DNA of 59,687 nt, counting the filler, from Catajapyx aquilonaris (taxonomy: Eukaryota), in the NCBI GenBank assembly GCA_000934665.2. It is 3 parts of 3 records of this genome, joined end to end, with 100 filler letters (N's around TTAATTAATTAA, not from the genome) between each part and the next. Parts side by side here need not be neighbours in the genome. Positions count along the whole stretch, not along the records: positions 1 to 19,832 come from JYFJ02006384.1; 2 more parts are not named here. One strand, given 5' to 3'. The translations under genes and the position numbers were made by a program. Of this stretch, positions 1 through 22,499 are shown one piece after another; the first letter of the stretch is position 1; the number at the start of each line of letters is the position of its first letter. The notes under the pieces are model-generated. The model saw only the letters and a list, made by a program, of their open reading frames with translations. It did not search any database and was not told the origin of the DNA.

Positions 1-415
1 GGCCTTTCATAAACAGTCAGGAGCCAGTCTAAACCCTGGCCCGTAAAGTAACAGTGCTGTGGCGTCGTGGTGAGCAGTTTACTGTCCAGGGTAATAGAGG
101 TAGCATGCCGCCCACGGAAACCCCCTTCAAAATTGGCGCAAACCAACGACCCGACACCCGTGCAGACCAAATATGGCGCGGACCAAAGACGGCTGAAATC
201 TATGGCAATTTCTGCCAAGCCCGATTGGCGGCGCGCCCGGAGGGGGCGGACTGGGCCGGGCGGGCAGCTCTTTTGCGCCAGATTCGAATTTCCGAACTTT
301 GACGGCTCGCCCTGGCCTTACCGTTCGTCTCTCAGGAAAACTGCTTATACCCTCGGAATAAGGATTTCTTGCCCGATTTTTAGAACACAACTTGTATTTT
401 GAGTGGAGTGTCCCT
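1..415. mobile_element. Right part of a non-autonomous TIR element (Kolobok/T2-like, ...CCCT|TTAA), truncated by the window start
   Basis: Ends CAACTTGTATTTTGAGTGGAGTGTCCCT|TTAA. The last ~110 bp match the right end of the complete copy at 15655-16158. Confidence 0.75.
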
Positions 416-1636
416 TTAAGACATAAGACTTATCCTGAGGGGAACAATGGGGCCACTCTACTTGTTGGGGGAAGGGGGAGCAGAAGGAGAGAGGGAGAGG
501 AGAGATGGGAGAGGAGGGCTAAGTGTGAAGGTAATCACAGAAATGGTTGTGTGAGTTTGTAAACACATTCAACACAGGCAGAACAATTGAGTTTGGAGCA
601 CTTTTTTTCAATTCTGGGAAAATTATTGCAAAGGGCAAATGCATCGCATTCTTCAGCCATAGCAGGGAATCTGCATCCTGCCCAAAATGGGACATTGCAT
701 AGCAAGAAAGAATAACAAACAGTCCAAAAAATTCGAAATGAGAATCCACACTAAATGCTGTTATATCCATGCAGCCTGCACTGCTGTACCATGTGATTCA
801 ATATTGAGCTCACATCCATATTGGCAGAAATCTCGTGCCGACCCACAAATCATACTGGCACCACGAGAAGGGAGACAAAGAGAGAGGGGAGTTATGCATG
901 GGGATGCACCTTTGGTTCTTCTGCCCAGCTCATATTTGTCGGATTCACTCAGTCTAAATAAGGCCAGTTAGATGTAGGAGCATCCACAATATTTTCACCA
1001 ATATGTATGTGTGAGCTATCTTTTGAAACACTCAGTGTATGTTTCATGCACTACTGCATATTTTAAAAGTTCACAGCTGGCCAGGAGGTAGCACCATAAA
1101 ATCTGAGGCCAACAAACAACAATGGAAACTTAGGGTCTACCCAGGGGTGGTCCTTGTACTTGTCCTGGTCCAATCAGAATGGGCCCAGGAATGTTCCTGT
1201 GTAGACCCCTTCACAATTGTTAGATGTATTGGGAATTTTCCCATAATCTCGCTTATGAGTTTCCATGATAATTTGTTGTTGGCTACTGACATCCTTAGCA
1301 GAAAGATGAAAAACTACCAATAATTTATATATGCAAGTCACACTTAGTAAGTTGACAGATCTGGACAATGTCACCACTTATGCTCTCCCCAAAAGTTACA
1401 TTATGTTGCGGTAATGATACAAAACAATGACTTAGCATACGTATTATTACGAAAACAGGTTTCGGAGTTAGGAACTTAGAAAAGAGTTTTCCAAAAGCTA
1501 AATTAAAATCACACATAACATCTTGGCACTTGGAAGACAGAATTATGAACTCCCACTTTCATGTTAGTGGCATACAAATGGTGCTGAATGGAGGTTTCTG
1601 AGTTCCAGAACTTGGAAATCTGTTTTCTTACTCTAA

Positions 1637-1804
1637 AGGGGCATTTACACATGAAGACCCGGTCTGCAGGGGTATATCTGTGTAACCAGGTTTTTAAACC
1701 AGCATAGAGTGGAATGGGTAGGCAGCCTGACGGCAGGTCTTAAGACCAGCCAGATTAGTCTTTAGACCCTGTTTGCATCCTGAATCCTGTATGCAAACAA
1801 CCTC
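1637..1804. mobile_element. Degenerate PIF/Harbinger-like MITE
   Basis: TAA|AGGGGCATTTACACATG ... TGTATGCAAACAACCTC|TAA: imperfect terminal inverted repeats with TAA flanks. Confidence 0.4.
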
Positions 1805-2018
1805 TAAACTGAATGTTAGCTCCACTGTAAGAAGCAGCACATGAGAAATGCTATATTTCTCTCAGGTCATCTACACACATCAGAACATAGAAAATGTTGT
1901 ATATTCACAATATCCTGCATAAAAAGATAAGGCATGAGAGGTGTTGCATGTTGACTGACCATGCATAAAAAATCGATGTCTGACCGACGAGCTTCTTTTC
2001 AAATTGTCTTGCATCCAT

Positions 2019-2139
2019 CTATGGAAAGCTCCGCAGTTTCCAATGACCTCCACACGGGCATCCACGAGCCCACCTTTGATCCCAGGCACGGTTGGCAGCA
2101 GAACGTGGTAGACCTTGTAGTAAAGTCAAACTACAGCAC
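2019..2139 (-). CDS. MED16: Mediator subunit 16, last coding exon (RCCSLTLL...WDQRWARGCPCGGHWKLRSFP*)
   Basis: Acceptor ttcag, TAG stop, phase matches the previous exon. W-x-QRW-x3-C-x-CGG-x-W is the MED16 C-terminal motif. Confidence 0.93.
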
Positions 2140-2570
2140 CTGAAATGTTTATTTATTTATTTATTTTCATACTCTGTGCTTGAGCTGTACTCCTTACAAT
2201 AGATGTTACATTGTGTGAACCAACCCATTCATTGGAGGAGAAACAAGAACATTAAAAAAAAGAGAGAAGAAAGGTCATACGCTGTAGAAATGCAAGTAAT
2301 GAAAAGACATGTTAACTGAATTGATAACAAGTAGCATGCTTGAAGTACACCCAAAAATTTCACTCTGTACTGATTTCACCCTAATTCTTTACCTGTTTTT
2401 AATACTCACATAAATTTAGTATTTTTGCTGCATTCAAAAAAATCTGCTGTTTGTGAATTGTAAATAGCTTCGTGAAATGGTCTGGTGGGTAGCAAGGGAT
2501 GTCATATACAAATCTGTGCCTTGGTGTGGAGAAAAGCTGACATTCATATATCAGATGATCAATCGACATA

Positions 2571-3318
2571 CAGTGCACCCCGCTTATTTGGACCACATCG
2601 GGGCCCCATAATTTTGGCCCAATAAAGTGGGTGTTCGATTAACCGGGGTTCATGTGAAAAAAAACCGGGGAAAAACGCAAAAAATTAGACTGTACTACCA
2701 GCTTTAATCCTCAAAAATGATTGTGCAACAGGTGCAGGTAAAATAGTCGTATAAAAGTGACTGTGTCATGCAAACGTCATGGAAGTGCAAAGTACTGTAC
2801 GACTGTACAGTAATTTAGTGCTCACTCTGCTGTAAAAATTGTCTAGTAACACCTGTCGGGACTTCATGTTAACAAAGTCTGCGCAGGTGTCGAGTGCAGT
2901 CACAGGACCGCCGTCATTCCCTACTTGCATAAAAAACCGTCTTACAACAGCCACAGAATTCCGCGCTTCTGTGGCTATCACTGGAATGGGCGCAGGTGTT
3001 TCATCCTCCTCACTTTCTTGGTCATCCTCTTCCTTTAGGTACTTGGCCGCCACTTGATCAATAATGGCATGTTCCACCCCGGATGCACTACTGTAAATGA
3101 CTTAGGAATGGTCCCTTAATCACAAGCCCTACAGGTGTTATGTGCAGTACAGTAGTATAGCATTATAGCAACCAAACTGGTCCGACTAACCGGGGAAATC
3201 ACCAGCTATGCGAGGAAAAATTACATTGACGGTATTGATTTGATTCCGGTCCTGGCGATTATGTCCAAAAATGCGGGGCCCCCGAAAAATCAGGGCACCA
3301 ATTAAGCGGGGTGCACTG
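2571..3318 (-). mobile_element. pogo/Tigger-like internally deleted DNA transposon
   Basis: TA|CAGTGCACCCCGCTTATTTGG ... CCAATTAAGCGGGGTGCACTG|TA. Internal ORF 2766-3077(-) has the acidic tract and 'RQVLLDNFY' tail typical of pogo/Tigger transposase C-termini. Confidence 0.85.
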
Positions 3319-3731
3319 TATTTGTTTTCCAATTGCACTAGTCGCACACCTCCTCTGGGTTTAGTTTTATCACCAACTGATTTTGAAGTCTTAGTATTGT
3401 AGAATAATTTCTTAGATTATCAGTAGACGTATGTCCGGTTAAGGTAAACCCAGAGTGAAGTAATTTTCTTTCTGGAAATCATGCTTAATTGCTTTGTAGT
3501 GTAAATATCGTCAGGTCACCTCATGCCTAGCCAGGGCTTCATTTTTAAGCCTTGTTCCACCGTATGTAACAATTTAGGGAGTTCTTCTATTTCATTTATC
3601 CAATCTGTTGTGTATGGTTGAAAATTTTTGTTGCAGTTAATCACCCAGTTCAGAGTTTCATTTGGCTTAGTTTCTGCCCTTTGAATGGAGTAGTCAAGTG
3701 CTGCTATCAGCAGTTCATTATTAGAGTGCTA

Positions 3732-4080
3732 GGGGAGGCGAAGTGGTGCTGCGGTAACGTATGCGCCCACGAATGTTAAGGTCGCGGGATCAAATCCTGC
3801 CTGGGGACACCCCTTCATCTCGTGCAGAGTTCAGGGTCACCTCTGGCTTCGTCTCAGGTGGTATTTCCAATAGACTAAACCACCGGGGGGAGTTCACTAA
3901 AAATGGGCACATTAGGACATTGCAATGCACTTTGCACATCCCCTCCTGTCATCCTGCCCGTGGGCCCGGGCGCTTCGTCAAAGGTTCCAATTGTGTACAA
4001 TTGTACTAGTTAATAAATAAAGGTCCATGCAATACCCCAAGAGGGGTCCAAGCACTACCCGGATTAATTAATTAATTATT
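3732..4080 (+). mobile_element. tRNA-derived SINE, family A
   Basis: A/B-box-like head (GTGGTGCTGCGGTAA...GGATCAAATCC), (ATT)n tail, TSD ATTATTAGAGTGCT. Homologous to 8921-9304 and 17511-18095. Confidence 0.85.
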
Positions 4081-6107
4081 ATTATTAGAGTGCTTTTTTA
4101 TCATGAGGGTAAAGGACCTGTTCAAGTAGCCCCGCTACCTAAACGGCCACCATCTTGCGCATCTTGTAGTGTATAATCTATGCACCTAGTTTTACGCTGA
4201 AGGCCGCTGTGTTCGCCACTGACTGTATCTTTGATGTGGTAGGGGTTGCTACCTAGCGGCCTTGGTAGGATTCAAAACATGTTGTCACGTGGTGAACTGT
4301 TTTATTAGTTGATTTAGAGGCAGGAAAACTCGTGTGGTTTTTACCCCGTAAAAATGTTGTAAGAATATTCGTGTGAGACAAATGCCGCCTCAGGGAACCG
4401 ATATGCGAAATGCAAGCCCCATCGAGATATCACGCGTTTGCCCAATCGCGTATCTCTCCCTCACTCCCTTTCCTCTCTCTCACTCTCCCCTAAAAGAGAG
4501 AGAGGAAAGAGAGAGACGAAGCTGGCGGACTCAAGATGGCGTTCGTTGGCAAAGCAAGTGCGAACTCTCTCTCCAAACTGATGAAGGTCACCCTTAAGAA
4601 GCATTCTTCCATTGAATGACATATATTAGAGTGGCTGGACAGCAACATTTTGATCCAACTCCCCTGCGTTGCCAAGTTTCGGTGATCTGCTCCAATCTAA
4701 TGACACGAATCATTGAGCCATGTGGGTGGCCTTTCTTTGCCAGGATAACTTTGAACAGGTCCTTTAGCTATTGCCCTCAGTGCATTTAATGTTAAGGGTA
4801 ATGTGCCTGTTTCAAGAAACAAAAAGTATCCTGGTGTTGATCTCGGTAGCATTTAGAATTTTTTTTCAAAAAATACGCTTGCACCGGTTGGATCTCCGCT
4901 AAATGCCTGGGTCCCCAAATGGGGCAAGCATATACCATATTACCTCACTTAAAGCGGCATGCCGGTGTACTAGAGGTCGACCAGTTTTTAGTAATTCACG
5001 ATCTGGTGGCTATACCAGCATGCTGGTCTAAGGGAGGTATGCCGATATAAGGTGAGGTTTTCTTAAGCAGAGCATTGTCACGATCTCTGTGAAAATTATT
5101 CTTATTATTACTCAATTGAATGCATTGCACCATGTTCTATGGTGCGGACACAGCCCAGTACACTTATATTTCCTGACACATTTCATAAGATCATTCGATA
5201 AGTTCTTTCACGGTAACTTCAATTAACAGTACGAGGCTGCAAGAAGGGAAGCATACCTACCAGGATATTACATACGGTGGGTTTGGATTTTATTTTCTGA
5301 GTAATGAGGCTTCTCAGACAAATTGATACCACTACACAAATTGATCATCTGATTGCCAACGAGATCCACGACTAGCGTATTATCGAGCATAACGAAATAC
5401 TTAAGTAATTTGCCTTTATCGTAATTAGTAATGTTTAGGGGGGGTTCCCCTCTCAGAGCAGGCTTAATATGAGATTGGTTTTACACTTTATGACCTGCGC
5501 AACAGATGAACTTGCATATTCTCACAGCCCTTTGTGCCTGTACTGGCACATTTTTCACCATAACATGATTTTAGTACATTGTATTCGAAAATATTTGTCA
5601 AAGATCAAAATGATGGAAAGGTGTGTTCACATATACGCGAATAAACACTTGCGAGCGATTTTCAGGTTTTGCTTTTTCGTGTCTTTTACGTCACGAAGCA
5701 AGCGAATTTTTGGAAAATTTTCCGGGCCTTCACGTATCCGCTATCCGATAAAACTTACTCGTTAGTTATGAAACATGCACTGTGCAGCAGGGCAGGTAGG
5801 AGGGAGGACAGGGTCGGGGTCATGTGGGCAGGAGGAGGTCTTGGGCTGAGAAAGATGGCGGAGCCCTGTGCTGCGGAGGCAGCCGGCATGGCACTGAAAA
5901 TGCTGCTGAACCGACCTCGGAAGGGCGTCCAGGTCGCAGTGCACCAAGTGGGGCAAGAGCTGGACATGGTGCGGAGGCTGGCAGGGTCGGGAATTTGCGA
6001 CAAAAAAATAGGTAACTTCCAAGCTCAGGCATCCGCATTCCAAACATGGCAGAGGAAGGCCGACAAGTCCGCGTGGCGTCGCTGGGTGGCTCAAACCACC
6101 TACTATA

Positions 6108-6918
6108 CAACTCTAGTGCATAAGTATTGGGCCACCCCCAAGAAATGGAGTGGTGGGGTTATAAACAAGATGTGATAAAAAGTTTCCATTAAGACTATCT
6201 GGACTTTAGAATGAATAATTATGAATAGTAACAATTTAGCTAGGATGATACCAAAGTTAGAGTTAATTTGACAATTAACAACTGAAGTAAATACGATTAT
6301 ACCTTGGACAGTGAATTTCTGTGGGGTCTGATAAAAATTGCTTTCACTACGTTTATTTCTTACTTAGTGGGATATAAATATTAATAACAAACCGCAGGAC
6401 TGTATTGAGAAGAAAAACTGTATTGAGATTAATTACAAAGAATCTATCACAGAATTAAAAAATATTTATCATGGCTTGCAAATATGAAATTTCTGTGCTT
6501 TTTTGGATTAAGGAATTTTTAAAGTCATAATTTTACATTAATTCTTTTGAAATTTTTTATTATAGCACATTGGACTGAGCGATAAATAAAAAATACTATC
6601 ACATTTTAATTTATTAATAAATAACATTGGTACAGCAAACTGTATCAATTTCTGAAAAAAATTCACTAGCATAAATATTTTTTAATTCCGTGGCAGATTT
6701 TTTGTAATTAATCTCGATAGTTTTTGGGTTTGTGTGGCCCCTCAGGTTCGCTATAAATATTTACATCCCGCTAAGTAAGAAATAAAAATAGCGGAAGCAA
6801 TTTTTTTGTCAGACCCCACAGAAATTCACTGTCCAAGGTATAATCATATTTATATCAGTTGTTAACTGTCAACCACTCCATTTCTTGGGCGTGGCCCAAT
6901 ACTTATGCACTGGAGTTG
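6108..6918. mobile_element. Tc1/mariner-type foldback element with long inverted repeats
   Basis: TA|CAACTCTAGTGCATAAGTATTGGGCCAC ... GTGGCCCAATACTTATGCACTGGAGTTG|TA. Additional internal inverted repeat ~6268-6395 vs ~6745-6872. Confidence 0.8.
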
Positions 6919-6956
6919 TAGCAACAGAAAATTAATGAAAAAGGAATGCATCAAAC

Positions 6957-7102
6957 CTGGTGCACTGCTTTACAGCTGCAGGTTGCTGGCCCAAATAGAT
7001 ATGGCGGACAGCATCCATTAAGGCTTCCCGCTGAGCAGCACCATCAAACAGACTAGGTTCAGTTTTGAACTGGACAAAATCAGGCTCCTGTCCATATTCA
7101 AG
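6957..7102 (-). CDS. MED16: MED16 coding exon (LEYGQEPDF...MDAVRHIYLGQQPAAVKQCTR)
   Basis: ttttcag acceptor, GT donor, 146 nt, phase 0 to 2. D-x-RH-x-LG...K-x-CTR motif. Confidence 0.92.
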
Positions 7103-7267
7103 CTGAAAAATAAAGTGGCATTCTCTACATCCTCGATTTTCTAGATCACTGAGAAATTATCCAATATCATCTGTTCCATCAAAAATGATGTTTTTCATTT
7201 TCCTAAACCTTTAGAATCCATATGGGACATATTGGCACCCTGTACAATGTACTACATGAGTACATAC

Positions 7268-7377
7268 CTGTAATGGTGGTGTTTGTTGCCACAGAGCTGG
7301 GCTTGCAATACCATATGCCATAGCGCCAAAGTTGACATGAGGAATCATCACCTGGCTGTACAATACGCAGCATTCAT
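7268..7377 (-). CDS. MED16: MED16 coding exon (DECCVLYSQVMIP...QQTPPLQ)
   Basis: cacag acceptor, gtatgt donor, 110 nt, phase 1 to 0. Matches the conserved DECCLLPSQ segment. Confidence 0.92.
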
Positions 7378-7444
7378 CTGTGCAAGGGAGTCATATAAAA
7401 GTTTTGCTTAATGTTCATCAAAATGGTTAGAATCCACAGCACTG

Positions 7445-8191
7445 TCAGTGTTTTGCATTGCCCCCTATCTCACTGTCTATGTGATTGCTGTCACGGGGTA
7501 GACTGTTTGTGGGTGTTGCAGGAGTGTCCACATTCACTAAATGCAAATACCGGTCAAAAGCTTGAAATTCTGGAAGGCCTTGAAATGAATCCTGCCTTGG
7601 AACCAACTCTAGTGGCACAGGTCCTAAATTATCCACCGAGTTGTTCCGACTAAATATTGGCTTATCCTCAAAAATCTCTTCATCTTCACCAGTTTTGTTC
7701 ACAACATTCCTCACCACTTCAGAACCTCTCTGAAGCTTGAATGACCGTCTAGTCTTGATTTGCCACCGCGGATGCATTTGACGGCGTCGCCTTTGCCACA
7801 GAGGGACCTCATCCTTTTTCCAACGCGTTACATCATATGTTGGCTGTATCGTATAAAGTTTGGTTGCATATGAAGGTCCAGCAGCACTGAATGGCATCAA
7901 TGACTTACTCAGAAAGGCATCTTCCCCATGTGATTTGTCATGTTGAACACACAAAAAGAGAATGAGCAATGCCAATATCCAACAAACAGTAGCACTTAAC
8001 CAGTAGCCATAGAGCCAGTGAAACGGCCACGCATCACCCGAATGGTAGATGTAGCTGAAATGTGCTTCCCAAATATATGGACACAAGATGAACCAGTAAA
8101 GTGGAAAGATGGCACTGAAGAGGAGAAAAACTAACACTGTTGCTGCAATAAATCGCGAGAGCTTGTCTTGCCACAGCCATGGCTTCCACAT
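7445..8191 (-). CDS. Uncharacterised 248-aa predicted two-pass membrane protein nested in a MED16 intron (same strand)
   Basis: 747-nt uninterrupted ORF. ATG directly follows a pyrimidine-rich acceptor (tattttagcag|ATG). Two hydrophobic stretches (about aa 14-36 and 59-82). No transposon hallmarks recognised. Confidence 0.65.
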   Translation of the reverse strand: MWKPWLWQDKLSRFIAATVLVFLLFSAIFPLYWFILCPYIWEAHFSYIYHSGDAWPFHWLYGYWLSATVCWILALLILFLCVQHDKSHGEDAFLSKSLMPFSAAGPSYATKLYTIQPTYDVTRWKKDEVPLWQRRRRQMHPRWQIKTRRSFKLQRGSEVVRNVVNKTGEDEEIFEDKPIFSRNNSVDNLGPVPLELVPRQDSFQGLPEFQAFDRYLHLVNVDTPATPTNSLPRDSNHIDSEIGGNAKH

Positions 8192-8705
8192 CTGCTAAAA
8201 TAGTATGCAGCTGGTTCGGTCTCCATATATTTGTAAAATGCTGCGTTGTTACCCAAGTCAAGCAGGAAGTAGATAAGAATATCACACCACAACTTCCGGT
8301 ATTAGGTCAGACAAATTTTAGTCACTGTACTAGATTTGACATTTCAATAGTCCTGATATAAAAAGCGTATAATAAAAGTAAAGAGAATTATGCAATGTTT
8401 TCCGATTGAGGTGCCACTATGGTTCAATTTTTTTCTTTTCTTCTACTAATCTGCTTCTTACTAAGCAGTTACTTTCCAAATTAAAATGGTACCTAGCAAT
8501 ATTAGGTCCAATGGAAGAACCTCCTTCAGGCAATGAATTGCAATCAATTTCTCAAATTGAAACATTTTGTTTCACTTATATCTGAGATCAATGCTAAATC
8601 CATTTTTCAGAGCTTAGTCAAAAAGTGAGGCATCAATTCAACCTAACACCAGCAGGTAAATTTATTTCAGTACTCTAAAGTGATTGTTCAAATGCATCTG
8701 TTTAA

Positions 8706-9254
8706 CCCTTTGTCTCCCACTGGATTCCCCCAAAAGGGCCAAAGATGGCTCAGCATGGGACAATAATATATATAAAAAAAACTTATTTGTGGCTTTTTGG
8801 CACTTTGGAAAACTCCATCATTTTGGGAGTTTTCCAAAGTGTCAAAAGCCGCAAATAAGTATTAATTAATTAAATTTTAATATTATTATTATAAATCAAT
8901 ACTTATTGTACTTATTTGCAAAGGGAGGCAGAGTGGTGCTGCGGTAATGTATGCGCCCACGGATGTTAAGGTCCCGGGTTCGATCCCAGCCTGGGGGGAC
9001 ACCCCCTTCATCTCGTGCAGAGTTAAGCGGTCGTCTCTGGGTTCGTCTCGGGTGGCATCTCCGAAAGACTAAGCCACCCGGGGAGTTCACAAAATGTACC
9101 ACGCCACTCATTGCACTTGCACATTGCACATCCCCTCCTGTCATCCTGCCCGTGGGGCCTGGGCGATTCGCAAAAAGGCACCATGTACCATCCTAAATGA
9201 TCAATAAAGGTCCGTGCGAAACACCAACCAAGGTGACTGCACTACCCACAATTA

Positions 9255-9311
<57 letters not shown>

Positions 9312-9709
9312 TTGCAGCTTGTTGGCACTTCGGAAAACTCAAATTTGGGAGTTTTCCGAAGTGTGAAAAAGCTGCAAATCATTATTAATTTATTTTTCGC
9401 AACGTACGGCGATTTCAGTAAATTCGTCTGGCATGGTTTTCAAGGTTGTTATTCCCAATATTTTCAAGCATTTCATAATTAAATCAGCCTAACAGTTGGT
9501 CAGCAGTACTCGAATTTAGAGTTTTTATAGCCCTTTTTTAGAAATTAATTTATGGACTTCTAGATGAGCAATTGTTCCAGACCCATTCATAGTGTTTTCC
9601 CAGATAGGGTAAGTATAGCTGTTATTACTTGTCAAATATCTTGTCCATATCTTTGGAGTACGCATAAGCCGAAATCTGTGTGGTTCAGGCCTATCTGGTA
9701 GTGAAGGGG
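8706..9709. mobile_element. piggyBac-like non-autonomous element interrupted by a SINE
   Basis: TTAA|CCCTT ... AAGGGG|TTAA. The right end recurs at ~36340-36480. Confidence 0.7.
8921..9304 (+). mobile_element. tRNA-derived SINE, family A
   Basis: B box GGTTCGATCCC, (AAT)n tail, TSD TACTTATTTGCA at 8909-8920 and 9305-9316. Confidence 0.9.
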
Positions 9710-9713
9710 TTAA

Positions 9714-10740
9714 GGTGGAAATGAAGCTAGAGTCACTTAATGAGAATTTTATGAAAAAAACATATGTTACGCAGTTTCGTGTCCTCTTATCAATGGCGCA
9801 AAGAAAAATACACGTCACCGTGCAAATTAGCGAACTGGAGGACTCAGAAGTTCGCGATTTAACATGGGCCCTTATGGCAGAATTTTCAATAGTCCACAAA
9901 AAAATCATTAGTAAATGAGAATTTTAAAATTTAATGTGGAATATGTCGGGAATTATATACTGATCGTAACCGCAAAAAGAAAAACCTACCTCACCTTGCT
10001 CTTTCAATTTGTATTGCTGAAAAACGATGCGAAAATGATCCAGTGATGTCACATTGCTCCACTCCAGTGAGGGAGTGGCAACACAGCGTTGTTTACGGTA
10101 GCGTGATACGGTTGCATACGACCGTGAAATATGAGTGCAAGTTAGTATGATGGTTTTTACAATGGCTCACACAGGATTTTCGTTTGGCGGGGGTGTTTGT
10201 CAGACGTCAGAACCGTTATATTAGTTTATACAGTTATAATTATAATATAATAATAGAATGATTCGAATCCACCCGGCAATGACGTCACATACTGCTACGC
10301 GATAATTGGCCCGGACCTTTGCTGCGTTGCTGCTTCTATCTGTCACACGCATACCAACTGAACGTGTTCCAAATCCAACACAAATGAAGAGCTACAGGCT
10401 CCCCTTTCGGAACTAAACTTTTTAAAACGCCATGACAAATTGGGACCTCGTAATTACGACCGAATAAAATCGATTTCCATCAAAAATAAAAAATATTAAC
10501 CACACCTCCAAATACCATGTTTAAGTTGGCAGTCGTGAAAATTGCGCCTGCGCACAAAAACATCCAGCCGGTAATTGGCCCATATTAAATCGAGTTTAAA
10601 ACGCAGATTCGAATGGAATGTATAGGATTGAACAGCATTTACGGCTGCATCGGTTGCGTATGTTTCCCTGATTTTAGTCCTTCTTATTAACATTCCAATT
10701 CTAGACTCTCATTTGATTAGCAAGTCGCTTCATTTCCACC
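9714..10740. mobile_element. Kolobok-like non-autonomous DNA transposon
   Basis: TTAA|GGTGGAAATGAAGC ... GCTTCATTTCCACC|TTAA: perfect 14-bp TIR, RR...YY termini, TTAA flanks. Confidence 0.8.
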
Positions 10741-11089
10741 TTAAGTGTCAGTTTAAAATTTTTTAAAGGTCTAGTTTAAATGGAGGTAATGCGAGCCACC
10801 AGGTACAACAAAAGGTGGGTCAAGTGGCAAGCGGACACCGTCTAGAGCTCGGAGCAGTCCGCCCGGCCAATTAAGAGTGAGGGCACTTTTTACGATTGAA
10901 ATGACGGCGGGGAGCTTGCCTACCCTTGACAGATAGTTCTGATTTTTCCCTCGGCGAAAAGTAAGTCACAGAATTTCGGGCATTTTAAAATGGTTTTCAG
11001 CTGCACGTCCACTTACCGGGATTATTCCTATTCTTTCAAGTAGCACCAGGGAGGGGGGAGGGGGGTGTAGTTTCTCTTTTTTTCCCCCA

Positions 11090-11972
11090 CCCAAGTGCGT
11101 GATTATTGGTCCATCTGTATACCACACAGTGTCATCGATAGAGCTTCAAAACCCAGTAAAGTTCATACAGTATCTGTAACTGTTTTCGTTTTCAAATGAA
11201 AAGGGTGGGACACTTGGGTCAAAAATGGGGCCTAGGAGGGTGTTGTTCACCTTTTATTTCTCTTCCCCTCTCTTCATTTTCGCGTCATTTGCATACCTCG
11301 ACAAACGTAGATCGACAGAGCTTCAAAACTCGGTAAAAGGCATCTTTGTAACTGAGTACGTTTACATGGGACTAAAAATCGGCCTAGCTACGGCCGCCTA
11401 GCTAGGCGAACCGGTTTACTCCCATGTAGCCGCTGGGCCTACGATAGACCGGCCTTATCTGATCCGTTGTCGGGCGCAGCCCAAGCCTTTTGGATCGGGT
11501 GGTCTACCTAAGGCGATGGCGGTGATTGGCTGCTAGTGAACAGCCCAGGACTTGCTTCTGAGTGGACTACAGGCCGCGAAAATAGTCCCCCCGTATCTGT
11601 GGCTTTCTCGAATAAACAGTGCTGGTATATGTAATTCAACTGCCTAATTATCATGGGCAGCCCATGCGGTAGCTGCAGAGCTACACATATTGCACATTTT
11701 GCTGTGAGGAGCGGAGTATGGCCCGGCATGGTAGGGACTATTTTCGGGCGGCTCACCCCCTCGGTCCCATGTAGTGCCCGGTATAGTCTGTCCCATGTAG
11801 CAGTGGAAAAAGTGGGAGCAGGCTTTGCGTAGATAGGCCTTGCTTAGGAAGCCTGGGTCAGGCCGATTTTTAGTCCCATGTAAACGTACTCACTGTTCCA
11901 GGTTTCGAATAAAACAGGCACAAAGTTTCAGCCTCATTTTGCAGGGGGGCCTATTATTTTGTCCAACCCCTG
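11090..11972. mobile_element. mariner-like non-autonomous remnant hosting the 11354-11891 MITE
   Basis: Ends TTTTGTCCAACCCCTG|TA. Internal duplicated block ATCGAyAGAGCTTCAAAAC. Left end not found. Confidence 0.45.
11354..11891. mobile_element. PIF/Harbinger-like MITE
   Basis: Perfect ~30-bp TIR GAGTACGTTTACATGGGACTAAAAATCGGCCT with 3-bp TSD ACT. Confidence 0.8.
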
Positions 11973-12288
11973 TATGTAGGGATCTGACTTCTATCAGGCA
12001 AATAAGGATGTAAGTTGAAAAAAAAAAAAATCTGACAAAGGTACAGGTCCATAACAATTGTGCTGTTATTGTAGGGAAAGATGAGTCCTCTCTTGACAGC
12101 CATTCAAAAGAGGGAAAAACTAGCATAGGCGAAGGAGAGAGGAAATGGAGGAATGCAATCTGGTCGAAGGTCACTTTTAGTCATGAGTCCATGTTAGAGG
12201 TCAGCCCTGGTGGCAACCAGCGGCGGATTCAGCACACCAAGTGAGAATGTGAGATATGCATCTTTCCCTACAATAACGGCACAATTAT

Positions 12289-12581
12289 ACCGAAGCAGTT
12301 TGGCGGAGTGGATAAGGTGTTCAACTGCTAATCGGGAGGTCCTGGGTTCGAGTCCCAGGGCCGGCAATCCTAACCATGGTTTTCTGTGGTTTCCCACGGT
12401 CCACCCAGGAGAATTCCAGGATTGCTTCCTAAATAATAGGCCACAGCCGCTTCCTTCTGTCCCTATCCTATCCCAAAAAGCGAAGTAAATATGAAAAAGC
12501 AAAGAGTTCCAGTCAAGACAAAATTGGGATGACCTCCCCCCCAAAGAGCCGCCGGCTGATAACGGGGCATGAATTATTATT
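12289..12581 (+). mobile_element. tRNA(Ser-GCT-like)-derived SINE, family B
   Basis: TGGCGGAGTGGATAAGG...CTGCTAATC...GGTTCGAGTCC head, (ATT)n tail, TSD ATAACGGCrCAATTAT. Confidence 0.88.
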
Positions 12582-12780
12582 ATAACGGCGCAATTATTAC
12601 GGACCTGTAACTCTGACAGATTTTTTTTTCTTCAACGTACACCCTTATTTGCCTGATACAGCCAGCGGCTCACCAAGAATGCACGTCTAGCATCTTCCAC
12701 TTTTCAAATTTCCACAAAGGCATGAGTGATGTTTTTGAAAATAATGTTGTTACGTTATAAAACAATTACATACAGAAGTG

Positions 12781-13123
12781 CAAGGGGAAGGTGTGGTGGC
12801 TGAGATGGTAACATCTCGGCTTGCTGAGTGAAAGGTCCCAGGTTCGATCCCCTGTGTTGGGAGGGTCTCTGACCTGCACCTTTGGAGGTGTCTGGCAACC
12901 TCACCTCCTGGGGGATTGCCCATGGCCCAACCTTGAGACATTGCACTTGCACCTGTGTCCCCTCACCAAAAAGCCCTATCCTCTCCCATTGTCCTGTTTC
13001 CTTGCACCGGAGATTGAAGAAAGAGTACAAGAAAATTGGTGGTGGTGTACCACCCCCCAAAAAGGCCTATGTAGGCCTATCACAGGGTAAAATAAATAAA
13101 AATAAAATATAATAATAATAAAA
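12781..13123 (+). mobile_element. tRNA-derived SINE, family C
   Basis: GTGGCTGAGATGG A box, GGTTCGATCCC B box, A-rich tail, TSD ACATACAGAAGTG. Confidence 0.85.
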
Positions 13124-13598
13124 ACATACAGAAGTGAATCATAACTCAATATTATTTTACATATGAAAAGCACATGCACCTGAGTAATATTTCCTTTGCC
13201 AGTGGAATGTTTTTAATGAGATAATGTTCGCTTCATTTGGTACCCTCACTCCACCCTTGGAGCATGCGTGGAAATTAGAAAAGTGAGAGGAGCCAGACGT
13301 GCATTCTCGGGGGGCCGCTAGCTATTGAAGTCATATCTCTGCATATGTAGCCTGTGTTGACACGTTGATATGGACTGTCGTTTGCCCATCACAGTGGTCT
13401 AATGTTGTCTTGCCATGGTGCGTGTGGATTTGTCACCTTTATGAACCTTCAAGATTTCACCCCCAAGTGTTCTTCCACGTACCATGTTTGTGACTGACAA
13501 GATGTCCATATCATATATGATGAGAATGCCAATGACTAAGATATACTTGGCACACAAGTAACAAAAACTAAATTTGTTCTTTACAACTATTACCTCAC

Positions 13599-13794
13599 CA
13601 AGCAATGCGTCATCAGGCTCTTGTGTCTGGAGCAAACGTGTGAGAAGTCTGAACAAATGGCCCAAAACATCCAGATTCTCTGTGCTCCTTACAAAGGTTG
13701 GGAGACATGTAGAACGAATCAGGCCCCAGATGCGCATGATGACCACCAGCTCACGCAAAAGACTCAATGTTTTAGCATCCTTCAAAATTTCATA
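13599..13794 (-). CDS. MED16: MED16 coding exon (YEILKDAKTLSLLRELVVIMRIWGL...EPDDALL)
   Basis: ttgcag/gtgag boundaries, 196 nt. LRELxVxxRIWGL and LFRLLTRL motifs. Confidence 0.95.
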
Positions 13795-13861
13795 CTGCAA
13801 CAATGAACAAAAAACTACAATTAGTACCTCCTTGGAATACATATTATTAAAATGCCCATAC

Positions 13862-14052
13862 CCCTGGGCCTTTGTTCTGCCGATGCTCAGGAAGTGCAGC
13901 CAAAAGTGAAAGGGCAAAGTTGGCTACCCACTGAATCAGCTGCTGCAGAGACTGCAATGTGCTTGCTTCTACTGTATATTCCTTTGCCTCTAGATTCAAT
14001 AATGCTTTGTCCACATCACCTACACATTCCACACTCTTGGCACTTAATATTT
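13862..14052 (-). CDS. MED16: MED16 coding exon (EILSAK...TLQSLQQLIQWVANFALSLLAALP...)
   Basis: ttttcag/gtatg boundaries, 191 nt. TLQxLQQLxQWV motif. Confidence 0.95.
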
Positions 14053-14122
14053 CTGAAAATGCATAATGTATGTAACTTGTCTGAACTCCACGTAATGAAA
14101 AAAAAGTCTCATGTAGATGTAC

Positions 14123-14262
14123 CTGACAAACTCTCCCCTGGGCCTTTGTCATGGCTTGGCAAATCGGATGGACGCAACAGAGCCTTGAATGCTGATGCTA
14201 TGAGATGTAACATCAAAAGTGCATTTTGAAATGATGCCTTCTGCTGCCCACCTTGTTGCATC
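14123..14262 (-). CDS. MED16: MED16 coding exon (MQQGGQQKA...AFKALLRPSDLPSHDKGPGESLS)
   Basis: ttgcag/gtaca boundaries, 140 nt, phases consistent. KxLLRP...DKxPG motif. Confidence 0.93.
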
Positions 14263-14322
14263 CTGCAATTACACAAGCCAATTTCAAAATCTGCACTGTA
14301 AGCAATGTTATGATTTAATTAC

Positions 14323-14503
14323 CTGTACAACACCACTTTCATGGCCATAAACCGCACGTAGTAGCACTGCTGCAAGCTCTGTGACTGTCGATTAAAACTC
14401 TCAGTAAATCGTTCACATATCATCTCCAACATATGGCCTCGAAGACACATTAACACGTCCCACCAGTTTGTGCCTGTCACTAAGCAGTACTCCAACAAAA
14501 TCA
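14323..14503 (-). CDS. MED16: MED16 coding exon, most 5' one visible (ILLEYCLVTGTNWWDVL...AMKVVLYR)
   Basis: ccttag/gtaat boundaries, 181 nt. LLEYCxVTGxxWWD motif. Upstream exons are not in this segment. Confidence 0.95.
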
Positions 14504-14987
14504 CTAAGGGGATGGAAACAATTATATTATTATAGTTTTCATCTGCAAGAACAAGATACATAATATTCTTCATAAAATTGGCCAGTCCATCTTGGGTGAA
14601 GATCAAAATGTCCTGGTCACACAAATCGTCGGGTAAGATCAATACTATTGCATGTCCAAAAAATTCAATTTCAGGGTAAGTCCACCACCATATTCTACGC
14701 TAAGAGACGTATCTGCTGAATTGTTATTTCAAGTCCACCTTCCACCATGCGCCTGTGACATCACTAGAACGAAATTATTGTATGTTCAGCTGCACACAAC
14801 AGAAAACTTTCAATATTTTTTCCTGTGAAACTACTATTTTGTGACTTACAATAGTATTGATCTCACCCTTGAACGAAATTATAACCAGAAGCTTTTACAG
14901 TTGAATCCGGACTTCAAGGGACCACTTTTTTTTATAATTGATATTAGGGAGGTTGGCCCAGCTTTGCCTCTTCAACCTCCAAGGATA

Positions 14988-15100
14988 GGTTGATTGATTG
15001 ATTGAGTGATGGTTTATTGGCGCAAGAGCAGCAATGGCTATACTGCGCCAAGCACCTGTGACGTTGTAGGGCAGGAAAGGCAATACCACCTCAACCCCAA
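14988..15100 (-). mobile_element. 3' end of a non-LTR retroelement
   Basis: Minus strand GGCGCAGTATAGCC...TTGCGCC stem, then AATAAACCA and a (TCAA)n tail. Confidence 0.5.
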
Positions 15101-15221
15101 CGTTAAATGAACGAAAGGTTTTTAAAAAAAGAGATAATTAATTAATTAATTATCATTTTACTTGAGTATTTATTACAGTAGCAACTATAAAATTCCAATA
15201 GAATGTAATCCATCCATCCAG

Positions 15222-15392
15222 GAAAGGAAGGAAGCGGCTGTGGCCTATTATACGGAAGCAACCCCGAAATTATCCTAGGAAGACCGTGGAAAACCACAGA
15301 AAACCACAGTCAGGATCGTCGGCCCCGGGATTCTAACCCAGGACCTCCGATTAGCAGTCGGATGCCTCATCCACTATGCCAAACTGCTTCGG
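15222..15392 (-). mobile_element. SINE family B, partial
   Basis: Reverse-complement match to 12290-12460. Confidence 0.8.
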
Positions 15393-15654
15393 ACCACAGA
15401 ATAATGTCTGTTATAGCCAAATCGCCACTTTTGCAAATAAATCGCTGGGTAAAGGATATTTTCAACAAGACCATACAATGCCATACATCAAACAAATCCA
15501 TGGCGCTCATTGAAAGTTTCTTTGACGATCGGATAATTTCCAAAAATCTGTGGCCACCGAGATCTCCCGATTTGACAAGCCCGGACTGCTTTCTATGGGG
15601 TTTCTTAAAAGACAGAGTTTACGCCACAAGCCCCCGAACGTTGGACGATTTGAA

Positions 15655-16158
15655 AGGGACACTCCACTCAAAATACAAGTTGATCTGTAAAAATCAGGCA
15701 AAAAATCCTGATTCCGGTGATACCATCCGTTTATCTCTGATACAAACGGTAATGTCAGGGGAAGAGACGAAAGTCGGAAAAAATTCGAGGTCTGTTCGAG
15801 AGTGGCGCCGCCTGGCCACGTGGCCAAGTTAGGCGACGTTGGATAGAGCGCCGCCCTTCCCAACGGGCACTAGGGGAATTTGGCTTCGGACACAACCAGA
15901 TCCCCACGAATCCCCATACCCGCAGGGAACTTATCCAAGTCGCCGTTGGGAAGGGCGGTGCTACTATCCAACGTCACCCTCAGAGGGTGGCGTCGCCACC
16001 TGCGCCGGGCCCGTTTGAGCGCGGTTTTCGAACGACACACTTCCAGCTTTCGCCCTGGCCTTACCGTTCGTCTCTCAGAAAAACTGCTTATACCCTCGGA
16101 GTCAGGATTTTTTGCCTGATTTTTAGAGCCCAACTTGTATTTTGAGTGGAGTGTCCCT
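15655..16158. mobile_element. Kolobok/T2-like MITE, complete
   Basis: TGAA|AGGGACACTCCACTCAAAATACAAGTTG ... CAACTTGTATTTTGAGTGGAGTGTCCCT|TGAA. Confidence 0.85.
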
Positions 16159-16290
16159 TGAAGCAGAACATTACACAAGAGATCAGTGGTCTTGACAACA
16201 GCATTCTCCAATGAACGGCCAGCAACATGGAACGACGTGTTGCACTGTGCTTAGAGCAGGAGGGAGGACATTTTCAACATTTCCTCTAGA

Positions 16291-17371
16291 GATGGTTCCC
16301 AACCTTTTTTGCCTCATGCACCCTTTTTACCATAACCCAGCACACCATTCCCCCCCTCCAAGATTGGCTAAAAAATTGCATTCCAAATCATATGCATGCA
16401 ATATTGAAAGTGGTTTATATTTCTGTATAACTTACATTTCCATATGGATTGTTTATAGTGGATTGTTGCATAATTAATAACAATAGAAAGGGTTGCTGGA
16501 TTTTAAAATATTAACCAAAATGTGGGTAATTTTTCATTACTAAACATAATTACTGTACTTAACCTACTAAGTCACTAGTCATTAAAGTGACTAAACTTCA
16601 ACAAGTGAAAGGTAGGGTCTTGCAATACAATTTGCTCCTATGAACATTCCAGTCAGTGAGACACCTGTGATTGTTTTTTCTTCGCCAATTCTGTGATACG
16701 CGGAGGAATGCTTGATAGGGCACAACGCATGTCATCCTCAACTTCCAATCTATTTCGTTTCTTTGATTTTATTTCCAACAGAGTTGAAAACCCTGATTCA
16801 CAAAGATACGTTGACACAAATGGTAGTAATGCCCGGATAGCTCTTTCTGCAACTTTTGGGTAAGAATCGCACATCAAAGGCCAAAATTCTGTAATTGATT
16901 TGTCTTCGAACAAATCTCTTGCTCCTGAATCACTCTTCAGCTCCAGAAATTCATCTTGACAATCATCAGGTCGGGGTGCAAGCCGCTTACCCTCACCGGA
17001 CACCGGAGGTATGGCGAGGGACGGCCCTCCTACCCACAGATACCTGTGGCGCCCGGCGCCCCTGGCGGCGTGTCGAGAAACAGTACTTCATGTGGCAACA
17101 TTGTATACGGGATAATTTTCGCGCTAATTCAAACTCGCAAGACTGCTTCCCCCTTCTTGAGCGGCTCGAGAGGCATCTGAGAGGCTTGAGGGAAAGCGTA
17201 AGTGTTGCAACCCTCTCTACGGGTAAGCCAAAGCTTCATGTGGAGGAAAATCGAAGGCAATAAGATGATAAAAAATATCAAAAAGTGGGTCTGCGGAGCC
17301 CAATCAAATCCCCCCCTGAAACCCGGGAATTCCCCCCTGGGGGGGAATTCCCCCCCGGTTGGGAACCACTG
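16291..17371 (-). mobile_element. hAT (Charlie/Buster) internally deleted element
   Basis: TIR TGGTTCCCAACC / GGTTGGGAACCACTG, with CTCTAGA on both flanks (NTCTAGAN-type target). Confidence 0.85.
16653..16968 (-). pseudogene. hAT/Buster transposase C-terminal dimerisation-domain remnant
   Basis: FW...YP...A...LLPFVSTYLCESGFSTL...KRNRL...DMRCALS...Q-x-SH*. Confidence 0.9.
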
Positions 17372-17510
17372 CTCTCTAGACTGAGTCTAGAGTTTAGTAT
17401 TCTCCCAAAGTTACTCTACATTTGAGGTACAATACATAAATAAATATACCATTCTTGTTAAAATTAATTGAGAACGAAATGTGTCAGTTTTATGGGAATC
17501 ACCCTGATAT

Positions 17511-18049
17511 CATCACGTGCAGAGTTCGGGGTCATCTCTGGATTCGTCTAGGGTGGGATTTCCGATAGACGAACCACCCGGGGGAGCTCACAAAATACCC
17601 CGTTATCAGCCATCGGCTCTTTAGGGGGGAAGTTTGTTTTGCCTGTAACTCTTTGCTTTCATTTTACTGTGCTCTTTGGGATAGGATAGGGACGGAAGGA
17701 GCGGCTGTGGCCCATTAATAATTACGGAAACACCTCCGGAATTTCCCTGGAAGGACCGTGGGAAACCACAGAAAACCACGGTCAGAGTTGCCGGCCCCGG
17801 GATTCGAACCCAGGACCTCCCGATTAGCAGTCGGACGCCTTATCCACTATGCCAACCTGCTTCGGTAGGGGAGCTCACAAAATGACCATAGTGCCGACAT
17901 TGCACTGCACATTGCACTTCCCCTCCCAGTCACCCTGCCCTCGGACCAGGGCTCTTCGTTGTCCAAATTAATGTACATCTTGGCAAATAAAGGTCCGTGT
18001 CAAAACCTCAGCTGAGGTACGGCATTACACCCAATTATTATTATTATTA

Positions 18050-18092
<43 letters not shown>

Positions 18093-18095
18093 TAC
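17511..18095 (+). mobile_element. 5'-truncated SINE family A carrying a nested family B SINE
   Basis: Matches 9008-9304; (ATT)n tail; split at the duplicated GGGGAGCTCACAAAAT. Confidence 0.85.
17597..17867 (-). mobile_element. SINE family B
   Basis: Reverse complement of 12289-12570. 16-bp TSD GGGGAGCTCACAAAAT at 17581-17596 and 17868-17883. Confidence 0.9.
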
Positions 18096-18515
18096 TGCAT
18101 ATTGATAAATGAAACTATACACAAACATGCAAAATTAGCTCACCCATAACTTAGGCAGGACCAAAAAACATCCATAATTTTCTTGTCTCATTATTGTCAA
18201 ATATATATCAGAAAAAGAACGATTTTGATCTTTTCGGCAAGTGTTAGATCAGTGACAGGTGGGAAAATCACCCCTTCTCCAGTATTCAATGCTTTCCTCG
18301 CATGGAAAAGGAAGCTGAGTGATCAAAAACAGCATATTTTCCCACCGAGGGGCCAAGAAATGGTCTGTTGCCGACGTGAGGTGAAAATGAGTCTGTTATA
18401 TCAAGAGTAAAAATACACAGGGCCTCATGGAAGTATGGTGGGACTGGCCCTTCGAGTCTGTTATAACCCTAAGTCTGTTACAGCCGAGGCTGTTATATCC
18501 GGATACAACTGTATA

Positions 18516-19413
18516 CAGGGTGACGGGAAACTCGTGCCAAATCCCCAGATAGACTGATAGTACTTGCAAAACTAATACAGGGTGTAAATGAATTCAACCG
18601 ACAAACTTGTAGGGGTAATAGAGGGGACCAAGACAAGTATTTTTGACATAGGAACCCGTGTCTGGAAACGCCATCTAGAGGGGGGTTCATAGACGAGGAA
18701 CGGGTGCGCTCAGACGCGTCACGCAGGAGGCGCAAGGTGAGCGTACTGTTTTGTTGATAGATGGCGTTCGGATAATAAACAAAGGTGAGATGTGCCATAA
18801 CCTGGCAACAACAGAGCCATCTAGCAACTAAAGTACGCCTCCTAGGAGACGCGTGGAGAGTAAACAACGGTTCTGTTGTTGCCATGTTATGGCGTATCAC
18901 GTCGTTGTTTGCTTACGACGACACGATATGCCATAACCTGCCAACAACTGCGCGTCCTCTATCAACCAAACAGTCCGGTCGCCTAGCACCTCCTTCCTGA
19001 CGCGTCCGAGCACACCCGTTCATTGTATATGATCCCCCTCTAGATGGCGTTTCCGGACACAGGTTCCTATGTCAAAAATACTTGTCTTGGTCCCCTCTAT
19101 TACCCCTACAAGTTTGTCGGTTGAATTCATTTACACCCTGTATAGGGATGTGCAATTCGTTTTGGGCGCCGATGCATAGTTAATGTGTATGGTGCCTTTA
19201 AAGTGTAGAGGTCCGGATGGTAAAATATGAGGTAAAAACGACAAGTGCATGGGTATTGTACCCGGATCCTTACTTTGACGGGATTTGATCGCTTTTTGCA
19301 CATGGACGATGTGTTATAGACCCATGGCTGGATTGTTCGGAGGCCGTCGAGCTGGCTTTTGCTTCTTTATAGCTGGCGGAATGGATGTGACATCACGAAA
19401 CTTTGACGGCGTC
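18516..19413. mobile_element. mariner-type MITE (same family as 27165-27603), interrupted twice
   Basis: TA|CAGGGTGACGGGAAACTCG. Colinear with 27165-27495 once the inner MITE is removed. Confidence 0.8.
18578..19140. mobile_element. Near-perfect palindromic mariner-type MITE
   Basis: TA|CAGGGTGTAAATGAATTCAACCGAC ... GTCGGTTGAATTCATTTACACCCTG|TA, with inverted arms over 100 bp. Confidence 0.9.
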
Positions 19414-19416
19414 ATA

Positions 19417-19832
19417 TCCTCCTGAGACCCGAGAAGAATTGAGTAACGCAATATCAGTTCCTATTGCATTTTCTGAACATTTTCCCAATAAGAAACGAGA
19501 AAAAAAATTTAGTTTTAAAATATCAACAAAAATGGCGACAAACAACCAATGAGAACATTGGCATTCATTTGCTGCTACAGAAGCAGAACGGATGAAAGCT
19601 GAAAATTGAAATACCCCTTAATGGATCACTCACATAGTGCTCTATCCTCAAAACAATGTTTTTAAAATTCATTTGTGGAATTAGTGGTAGCAATTCCTCT
19701 CAGAAGACAATTAAAGATAAATGAAATTATTTTTGAACGCCACCACTCCAGGCATGGGGCTTGCTCCTTCCCTTCTTACCCGCTAAAGTGGTACCTTGCT
19801 ATTCTAGATTTTGAAACTGAACTGCATAGTGA
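19417..19832 (-). mobile_element. Partial copy of the TCCTCCTGAGACC element, cut by the gap
   Basis: Reverse-complement match to ~32129-32544. Confidence 0.85.
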
Positions 19833-19932
19833 NNNNNNNNNNNNNNNNNNNNNNNNNNNNNNNNNNNNNNNNNNNNTTAATTAATTAANNNNNNNNNNNN
19901 NNNNNNNNNNNNNNNNNNNNNNNNNNNNNNNN
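19833..19932. other. Artificial assembly spacer (N44-TTAATTAATTAA-N44)
   Basis: Exactly 100 nt with a palindromic linker that has stops in all six frames. Repeated identically at 39763-39862. Confidence 0.95.
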
Positions 19933-20942: not shown

Positions 20943-21087
20943 TTAAATTAGATCAGCCACATTCATAGGCATTTCATCAATCTGAGTGGAGTAGTACTGC
21001 TCAATATCTCGAAGGATGCGGATGTCGTCGTTCTTGACAAAGTTGATGGCCACACCTTTGCGCCCAAAGCGTCCTGATCGTCCAATC
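20943..21087 (-). CDS. EIF4A3: eIF4A-III coding exon 4 ([47 protein letters not shown])
   Basis: Motif VI HRIGRSGR is completed across the splice. Canonical eIF4A3 C-terminus; TAA stop. Confidence 0.97.
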
Positions 21088-21497
21088 CTAGAATGACAAT
21101 CATATATTCACTTCATTTGCATATTTCTCTATTAATAATACACAAGACTGTGCAATTTTCACTAGTTCAACATGTGTCAAAATCTGAATATCGCGAGAGA
21201 GCCACAAAAGTTATGCCTCAGCCCTCCATTTAATTGCATGCACAGAAGGGTATCAAGAAGTGTCCAAATAAAAAACTAATACAGATTATAGATTGGAGGG
21301 ATCAGGAGTTAAAAATATCATTAATAATAATAAAATCCTGTAAAATGCAAGTGCAATGTCAATTTAAAATGAGGGTCTTGACATAATTACCCAGAATGTG
21401 CAAATATATTTTTAAAGGGGGTATCTCATATGGATTGGTTCGGCTGGACAGACATAAATAGGCTAGGAAGATCCACAAGATTTCAACCAACGTGGAT

Positions 21498-21755: not shown

Positions 21756-21964
21756 TTCAACCAACATGGATGTGAGCTAAATTATGAAACACATGGTATT
21801 TATGCTTGTCATATGACCACCATTTCAGAAGAAACCTTTTTTTTTACACCTTCCATAAGAGTACTCACTGGTCCTACTTTATACACTTTACCTACTTTCA
21901 TATGCTTTACAGTGCACCCTTTATGTTCCAAAATACCCCAAACCTGTACATGTAAATTATTGTA

Positions 21965-22492: not shown

Positions 22493-22499
22493 TATATTA

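Follow-up and report, generated by a model that had tools for sequence, protein, structure and literature searches.

A nested coding sequence in the MED16 gene

We analysed a stretch of 59,687 nucleotides (nt) from Catajapyx aquilonaris (GenBank assembly GCA_000934665.2), the whole of which, filler included, is called the window below. It consists of three joined parts, and its positions 1 to 19,832 come from record JYFJ02006384.1. The minus strand of the window carries exons of MED16, and one MED16 intron holds, on the same strand, a 248-codon open reading frame (ORF) for a predicted two-pass membrane protein, which is the subject of this work.

Three minus-strand frames at 13.4-14.7 kb of the window matched the Pfam domain Med16_bridge. 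Searched singly against PDB and Pfam, the C-terminal exons gave no MED16 match, and their identity was settled via a protein, P0077, that was retrieved with the 48-residue exon 7102-6959 (96% identity). P0077 has 800 amino acids (aa) with the Pfam Med16 N, bridge and C domains and is 95-98% identical to the exons of the window. In a tBLASTn search its residues 440-800 mapped from 14504 down to 2022, and residues 1-439 were not found anywhere in the window. The exons that matter here are those at 13599-13794 (P0077 residues 611-675, also covered by Med16_bridge), 7268-7377 (residues 676-712), 6957-7102 (residues about 713-761) and 2019-2139, the last coding exon, which includes the stop. In P0077, residue 675 (exon end 13599) is directly joined to residue 676 (exon start 7377), which confirms the intron 7378-13598. 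Its splice sites are canonical, with the donor G/GTGAGG at 13599/13598 and the acceptor CTTGCACAG/A at 7378/7377.

The ORF occupies 7445-8191 of the minus strand as an uninterrupted single exon of 248 codons plus TGA (ATG 8191-8189, TGA 7447-7445; protein P0001). Its coding sequence lies entirely within the 6.2-kb MED16 intron and on the host strand, so that the two genes form a nested pair. The stop codon is separated from the next MED16 exon by only 67 nt (7444-7378). An initial annotation, made from the sequence alone, had already described an intact ORF of this length in this intron and on this strand, with the same short gap behind it, and the mapping of P0077 bears this out. It had also placed a splice acceptor directly before the ATG. 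A candidate acceptor tract, CATACTATTTTAGCAG (8192-8212), does abut the start codon there; it resembles six MED16 acceptors and includes an in-frame TAG (8197-8195) two codons 5' of the ATG.

Among the stop-to-stop frames of the window, only a 250-codon exon of an eIF4A-III gene is longer than the ORF. Frames of at least 249 codons occurred in none of 100 windows simulated with a first-order Markov model, in which the longest frame had a mean of 178 and a maximum of 246 codons. Its length by itself is moderate evidence against chance; the homology described below is decisive. We also scored codon usage as log-odds, trained on 617 codons from the MED16 and eIF4A-III exons of the window, with intronic triplets as background. 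The frame of the ORF scored -0.078 bits per codon and the other two frames -0.251 and -0.456, and the in-frame value was reached by none of 500 intronic segments (null mean -0.473, standard deviation 0.13). Because the training set is small, we take this as supporting evidence only. The region holding the ORF, 7200-8760, is unique within the window, and dispersed repeats start at 8762.

Membership in an unnamed protein family

With the ORF as query, phmmer was run exhaustively against 1.84 billion cluster representatives and returned 22 proteins at E<=1e-3. One of these, P0002, was set aside, as explained below; the remaining 21, together with six more from a profile search, are the relatives referred to from here on. 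They have 107-544 aa and an N-terminal two-helix hairpin in common. When a profile was built from 25 relatives without the ORF, the ORF scored 130.5 bits (E=2.3e-38) over residues 18-234, and no other of the window's 3654 frames did better than E=3.7. Pairwise BLASTP identity was 33% over 126 aa to Daphnia pulex EFX72266.1 (P0070; E=6e-13) and 26% over 219 aa to P0003 (E=8e-16). Within the third of the family motifs defined below, identity to the insect-type relatives rose to 46-71% over 28-47 aa, with 71% over 28 aa to P0018. Of 34 columns that are well conserved across 26 relatives, 22 are identical and two similar in the ORF; in the part that spans motifs 1-3, 19 of the 23 conserved columns are identical.

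None of the libraries searched provided a name for these proteins. Pfam gave nothing at the curated cut-off for the ORF and 17 relatives (the only match of the ORF was DUF6268, E=0.14), and neither did NCBIfam for five family proteins. The PDB sequences contained no match to a family profile (alignment A2), a word-seeded protein search with the ORF yielded 164 candidates of which none was significant, and a profile search with a second alignment, A1, found seven proteins, none of them named. Searches of the ESM Atlas with P0001 and P0018 gave no usable match, and a full-text search found no paper on DAPPUDRAFT_110954, ILUMI_09760, E9H7P8 or a MED16-nested gene. Only three family members have informative source names, from Ignelater luminosus, Daphnia pulex and Daphnia galeata, and all three are hypothetical proteins.

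The proteins of Daphnia pulex (DAPPUDRAFT_110954; EFX72266.1, UniRef E9H7P8) and Daphnia galeata (CAH0099981.1) share with the protein of the window the hairpin, YWFILCP..W and WNSPWLYGYWL, and the (V/I)QP motif, whereas their tails differ (FTWDNEDIPW and others) and are devoid of motifs 3-5. The hairpin is also common to the protein of the beetle Ignelater luminosus (ILUMI_09760; KAF2896417.1, P0012). The unnamed insect-type relatives P0005, P0006, P0013, P0017, P0018 and P0032 have both the hairpin and motif 3, as does the protein of the window. They run on with PRELFFxDLI and EYF(I/V)A(D/N)V...E.F, whereas the latter ends 21 residues past motif 3.

Metagenome contigs were searched with one Daphnia-type protein and gave seven loci. 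Only one of them, L001 on a 2.1-kb contig, is a full relative, with a contiguous coding sequence at 152-1126; the other six match 66-72 residues at 33-39% identity. MED16 similarity was found at none of the seven, and the L001 contig, at 2.1 kb, is too short to show nesting.

Could the ORF instead be an alternative exon of MED16, a chance frame, or a gene of a transposable element or virus? The acceptor-like site at its 5' edge and its position on the host strand would suit an alternative exon. However, splicing of the MED16 exon designated d to this acceptor leads into a frame other than that of the ORF and to a stop after 52-53 codons, so the ORF is not a MED16 coding exon. Chance is excluded by the 130-bit homology. 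Neither a transposable-element nor a viral Pfam domain, which had been named beforehand as an outcome that would overturn the gene, was present in the ORF; its region is single-copy in the window, and its relatives in Daphnia and a beetle are ordinary single genes. Homology, codon usage and uniqueness thus argue that the ORF is neither a chance frame nor a transposon or viral gene, and we regard this whole group of explanations as next to untenable. We conclude that the ORF is, with near certainty, a true member of the unnamed family, in line with the initial annotation, which had proposed a real gene of an unrecognised family.

Judged from its sequences, the family is one of fast-evolving small two-pass membrane proteins, with members from insects and from Daphnia, a crustacean. 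These results define a conserved arthropod membrane-protein family, characterized by a hairpin and linear motifs, that has no Pfam entry, solved structure or name in the libraries searched.

Predicted membrane hairpin and linear motifs

We numbered the family motifs from alignment A1, which comprises 15 relatives. Motif 1 has two parts, YWF(I/V)LCPxIW, with which helix 1 ends, and W..W.YGYW, with which helix 2 begins; motif 2, (V/I)QP, follows 30-40 residues after helix 2. Motif 3 reads R-(E/Q)-D-S-(F/Y)-x-GLP-x4-FD-x-YL-x-LV-x-VDTP-x-(S/T)P. Motif 4, (S/T)PRELFFxDLI, and motif 5, EYF(I/V)A(D/N)V...(T/S)-x-E-x-F, lie near the C-terminus.

The ORF contains motif 1, with 14 of 15 conserved columns identical (alignment columns 0-99), and motif 2, as TIQP at residues 114-117, in which the Q and P columns are identical. 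Motif 3 is present as RQDSFQGLPEFQAFDRYLHLVNVDTPATP (residues 199-227; 7511-7597, minus strand) and was detected by a hidden Markov model (HMM) of the C-terminal part of the relatives with 31.6 bits (E=3e-8). Two hydrophobic spans, at residues about 14-37 and 61-82, have 19-residue Kyte-Doolittle means above 1.6. The first (8081-8152, minus strand) ends in YWFILCPYIW and the second (7946-8011, minus strand) starts with WLYGYWL; both are seen by hydropathy, in the AlphaFold2 model and in the alignment. A basic cluster, RRRRQMHPRWQIKTRR (residues 133-149; 7745-7795, minus strand), and an acidic stretch, GEDEEIFED, are found in the tail, so that the order given in the initial annotation, of two hydrophobic helices followed by a basic and acidic tail, is present as described.

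AlphaFold2, run with a 27-sequence alignment, predicted helices at residues 5-51 and 58-89, with a predicted local distance difference test score (pLDDT) of 81-87 for this block. The remainder was low-confidence coil except for a short helix at 209-215 within motif 3; the mean pLDDT was 63, with values below 50 for residues 139-167. We also modelled the full-length relative P0006. Its model shows the same hairpin (pLDDT about 90) and no compact domain (mean pLDDT 58), with motif 4 as a helix and motif 5 as a weakly supported beta hairpin.

The nested protein would therefore consist of an N-terminal membrane hairpin and a tail, about 165 residues long and disordered, with short linear motifs. 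Both ends are expected on one side of the membrane, presumably the cytosolic one. A cytosolic tail is probable because the juxtamembrane residues that follow helix 2 are basic or Cys-Cys in the relatives. We infer that the protein may act as a membrane-anchored scaffold that recruits partners through its tail motifs. Within motif 3, the R-x-x-S and TP sites appear to resemble phosphorylation sites.

The top phmmer match, P0002 (3337 aa, E=1.9e-14 over 15 stretches), was left out of the alignments, its score being judged to be inflated by repeats. Each of these repeats matches motif 3 over 28-29 aa only, at 34-36% identity. The approximately 15 tandem repeats carry P(K/R)(E/Q)TRxxGIPSxQ...VN(L/V)D(T/K)P, which resembles the motif 3 stretch GLPEFQ...VNVDTP, and this may be a shared linear motif or chance.

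A short C-terminus and the state of the gene

Several observations weigh against an intact gene. After VDTPATP the protein continues only with TNSLPRDSNHIDSEIGGNAKH, the last 21 codons (7448-7510, minus strand), and then the stop. By alignment and HMM, this end has a degenerate motif 4 and no motif 5: motif 4 is replaced by TPTNSLPRDS, with LP in place of FF, and the motif 4-5 part of the ORF is identical at three and similar at two of 11 conserved columns. Both motifs occur in all of the insect-type A1 relatives with the C-terminal module (10/10). Motif 5 was found neither in the ORF nor in any of the 3654 frames of the window, using an HMM and regular expressions, and an HMM of motifs 3-5 of the relatives matched the window only at motif 3 of the ORF (best other frame: E=1.5). 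A motif-5 exon may lie beyond the low end of the window.

Other such observations concern conservation, translation, topology and the 3' end. Neither of the protein collections yielded a close orthologue of the ORF, with local identity higher than about 57%, whereas for MED16 they contain a counterpart that is 96-98% identical. The nested ATG has a poor start context, with C at -3, and is followed 11 nt further 3' by an out-of-frame ATG (8181-8178) whose context, GCCATGG, is strong. Residues 83-110, which follow helix 2, have a net charge of -1 and are not basic in the copy of the window, so that the topology call leans on the relatives. Finally, neither AATAAA nor ATTAAA is present in the 67-nt gap behind the stop, the exon 7377-7268, the intron 7267-7103 or the exon 7102-6957. 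The initial annotation had reported their absence from the gap and the following intron, and our hexamer scan agrees.

These features could be explained if the ORF were a truncated duplicate, that is, a DNA-level copy of a family exon that came to lie in the MED16 intron, lost the motif 4-5 part and is now silent or decaying, with a full-length paralogue at work elsewhere. Motifs 1-3 are well kept while motif 4 is degenerate and motif 5 missing, and the stop, 21 codons past motif 3, abuts the host splice signals with no poly(A) signal behind it; the missing orthologue and the weak start context also fit such a history. On the other hand, an old pseudogene would hardly have retained 248 open codons, a length not seen in the simulations, exon-like codon usage and the 19 identical residues in motifs 1-3. 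Moreover, the Daphnia-type and dipteran-like branches of the family are likewise without motifs 4 and 5. These motifs are thus not essential to the family, and their loss is not in itself a sign of a dead gene. The loss may nevertheless leave room for a truncated and possibly decaying copy, and we consider a relic of this kind possible but doubtful.

Our preferred explanation is that the ORF is a genuine, intact member of the unnamed family of two-pass membrane proteins, nested in MED16 as a single exon, and the evidence makes this somewhat probable. That the ORF is a working, expressed gene appears fairly probable. The copy in the window is a natural C-terminal truncation of the family.

Start and end of the transcript

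The acceptor-like site next to the ATG makes it probable that the mRNA of a nested gene starts in an upstream non-coding exon. This leader could be an exon of the nested gene's own or one of the early exons of MED16. The frame of the out-of-frame GCCATGG start codon is the one that exon d would read via the nested acceptor, and it stops at ~8034.

At the 3' side, the gap between the stop and the next MED16 exon (7378-7444, minus strand) contains a GT at 7442-7441, the sequence CTAAC at 7430-7426, a pyrimidine-rich tract and the acceptor CAG at 7380-7378. The nested stop is 15 nt away from CTAAC, the likely branch point of the host intron. The first canonical poly(A) hexamers past the stop are ATTAAA at 6686 and AATAAA at 6615 (6610-6686, minus strand), in the last intron of MED16, so that no canonical signal is present for 758 nt after the stop. 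Variant hexamers before 6686 are AATGAA at 7199, AAGAAA at 6886 and TATAAA at 6854.

With no poly(A) signal and a gap of 67 nt, the mRNA most likely runs into the downstream exons of MED16. Unless a non-canonical signal within the 67 nt is used, any mRNA of the ORF would most likely have to overlap MED16 exons. If the ORF is a working gene, we would on balance expect such an overlap in some form. The mRNA might extend unspliced to the hexamers at 6686/6615, or it might be spliced into MED16 exons.

The initial annotation had favoured splicing, from a weak GT at 7442 via the CTAAC motif into MED16, and the elements that it named are all present in the sequence. The nested mRNA would then join GT 7442 to the MED16 exon starting at 7377 and use the last three exons and the poly(A) site of MED16 as its 3' untranslated region. 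This would require an intron of 65 nt, similar to the nearby MED16 introns of 60, 70 and 67 nt, and would account for the lack of AATAAA and ATTAAA over 758 nt. However, ACA/GTGCTG is a poor donor, with A at position -1, where the MED16 donors of the window have G in six of six cases, and an unspliced read-through to 6686/6615 or a non-canonical signal would serve equally well. A shared 3' untranslated region formed in this way is thus quite unlikely.

A second donor-like site, ACA/GTGAGA, lies within the ORF, with its GT at 7472-7473. Its phase and that of the acceptor at 7377 match (both 1), and the joined frame stays open through the last 125 codons of MED16 to the MED16 stop, giving 364 aa. 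In such a layout the ORF would have a promoter of its own and would be spliced to the last three exons of MED16, much as variable first exons are joined to shared constant ones. One locus would then yield both MED16 and a membrane-anchored chimera of the hairpin, motifs 1-3 and the C-terminal 125 residues of MED16, the latter standing in for the lost motifs 4 and 5. Of the donor cores near the end of the ORF, GTGAG is the best, and the usual C-terminal module of the family is missing there. Against this stand the phase match, which has a one-in-three chance of arising at random, and the A at -1, again unlike the six MED16 donors. Similarity to MED16 was seen in none of 75 family proteins (best E=1.0), and a membrane anchor on the Mediator tail has no evident rationale. 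We therefore regard an in-frame chimera as very improbable. The last 100 nt of the ORF contain three GTs in all (7473, 7494 and 7503); all are in phase 1, and only 7473 has a good core (GTGAGA).

Should shared 3' exons or an in-frame chimera nevertheless prove true, the two genes would make up an unusual, interleaved pair; otherwise the nested gene would be ordinary apart from its odd 3' end. The nested stop is 15 nt away from a likely branch point, and the gene lacks its own canonical poly(A) signal. The locus is therefore a suitable test case of the way in which a gene nested on the strand of its host can terminate its mRNA and leave host splicing undisturbed. It also presents an annotation hazard, as pipelines may miss the nested gene or fuse it to MED16.

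Relation to other nested genes

Nested genes that share exons with their host are known from the cholinergic locus (VAChT/ChAT) and from Su(var)3-9/eIF2-gamma, and clusters of variable and constant exons from protocadherin and UGT1A. To our knowledge, it is 5' rather than 3' exons that are shared in the insect cases. In loci of the VAChT/ChAT type, two unrelated proteins are produced from one interleaved unit. At the locus studied here, the corresponding indications are an acceptor that abuts the ATG and one donor in the phase of the host, both read from sequence only.

According to the parts of a Drosophila survey considered here (Lee & Chang 2013, PMC3814207), nested genes make up ~10% of Drosophila genes; those on the same strand as their host are under-represented, tend to be single-exon, and are thought to be selected against. 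The nested gene of the window fits this single-exon tendency, so the nest itself appears ordinary by the pattern described in those parts (PMC3814207). There the surveyed pairs' coding sequences and untranslated regions are non-overlapping (PMC3814207), whereas here an overlap with host exons is likely. Less ordinary are the protein family, which is uncharted, and the space between the stop and the host splice signals, which leaves no room for a 3' end.

Other features of the window

An eIF4A-III (DDX48) gene lies at 20943-23582 on the minus strand, upstream of the MED16 exons and on the same strand as these. Its 250-aa exon matched human eIF4A-III chains with E=3e-153, and its C-terminal exon is at 20943-21107. 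Either a MED16 intron of more than 45 kb also contains eIF4A-III, or the assembly is discontinuous there.

Upstream of the MED16 exons, a 144-aa frame at 16656-17087 (minus strand) contains the hAT C-terminal dimerisation domain (PF05699, E=1e-6) and is a transposase remnant. A 207-aa open frame at 15209-15829 on the plus strand, without a Pfam match at E<=0.01, has the sequence ...LWPPRSPDL...FLWG..., which we take to be typical of mariner/Tc1-type transposases.

Dispersed repeat copies resembling short interspersed nuclear elements are located at 8917-9272, 3727-4085 and 17510-17596, with 77-84% identity. A 112-nt palindromic element at 8765-8876 lies, together with repeats of this kind, directly upstream of the unique region in which the ORF is located. 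Microsatellites of the type (ATA/TAT)n occur at 9255-9300, 18034-18094 and 30103-30160. One pattern of N runs (44 N, 12 bases, 44 N) occurs in identical form at 19833-19932 and 39763-39862; the two copies, exactly 19,930 bases apart, are probably masking or scaffolding marks.

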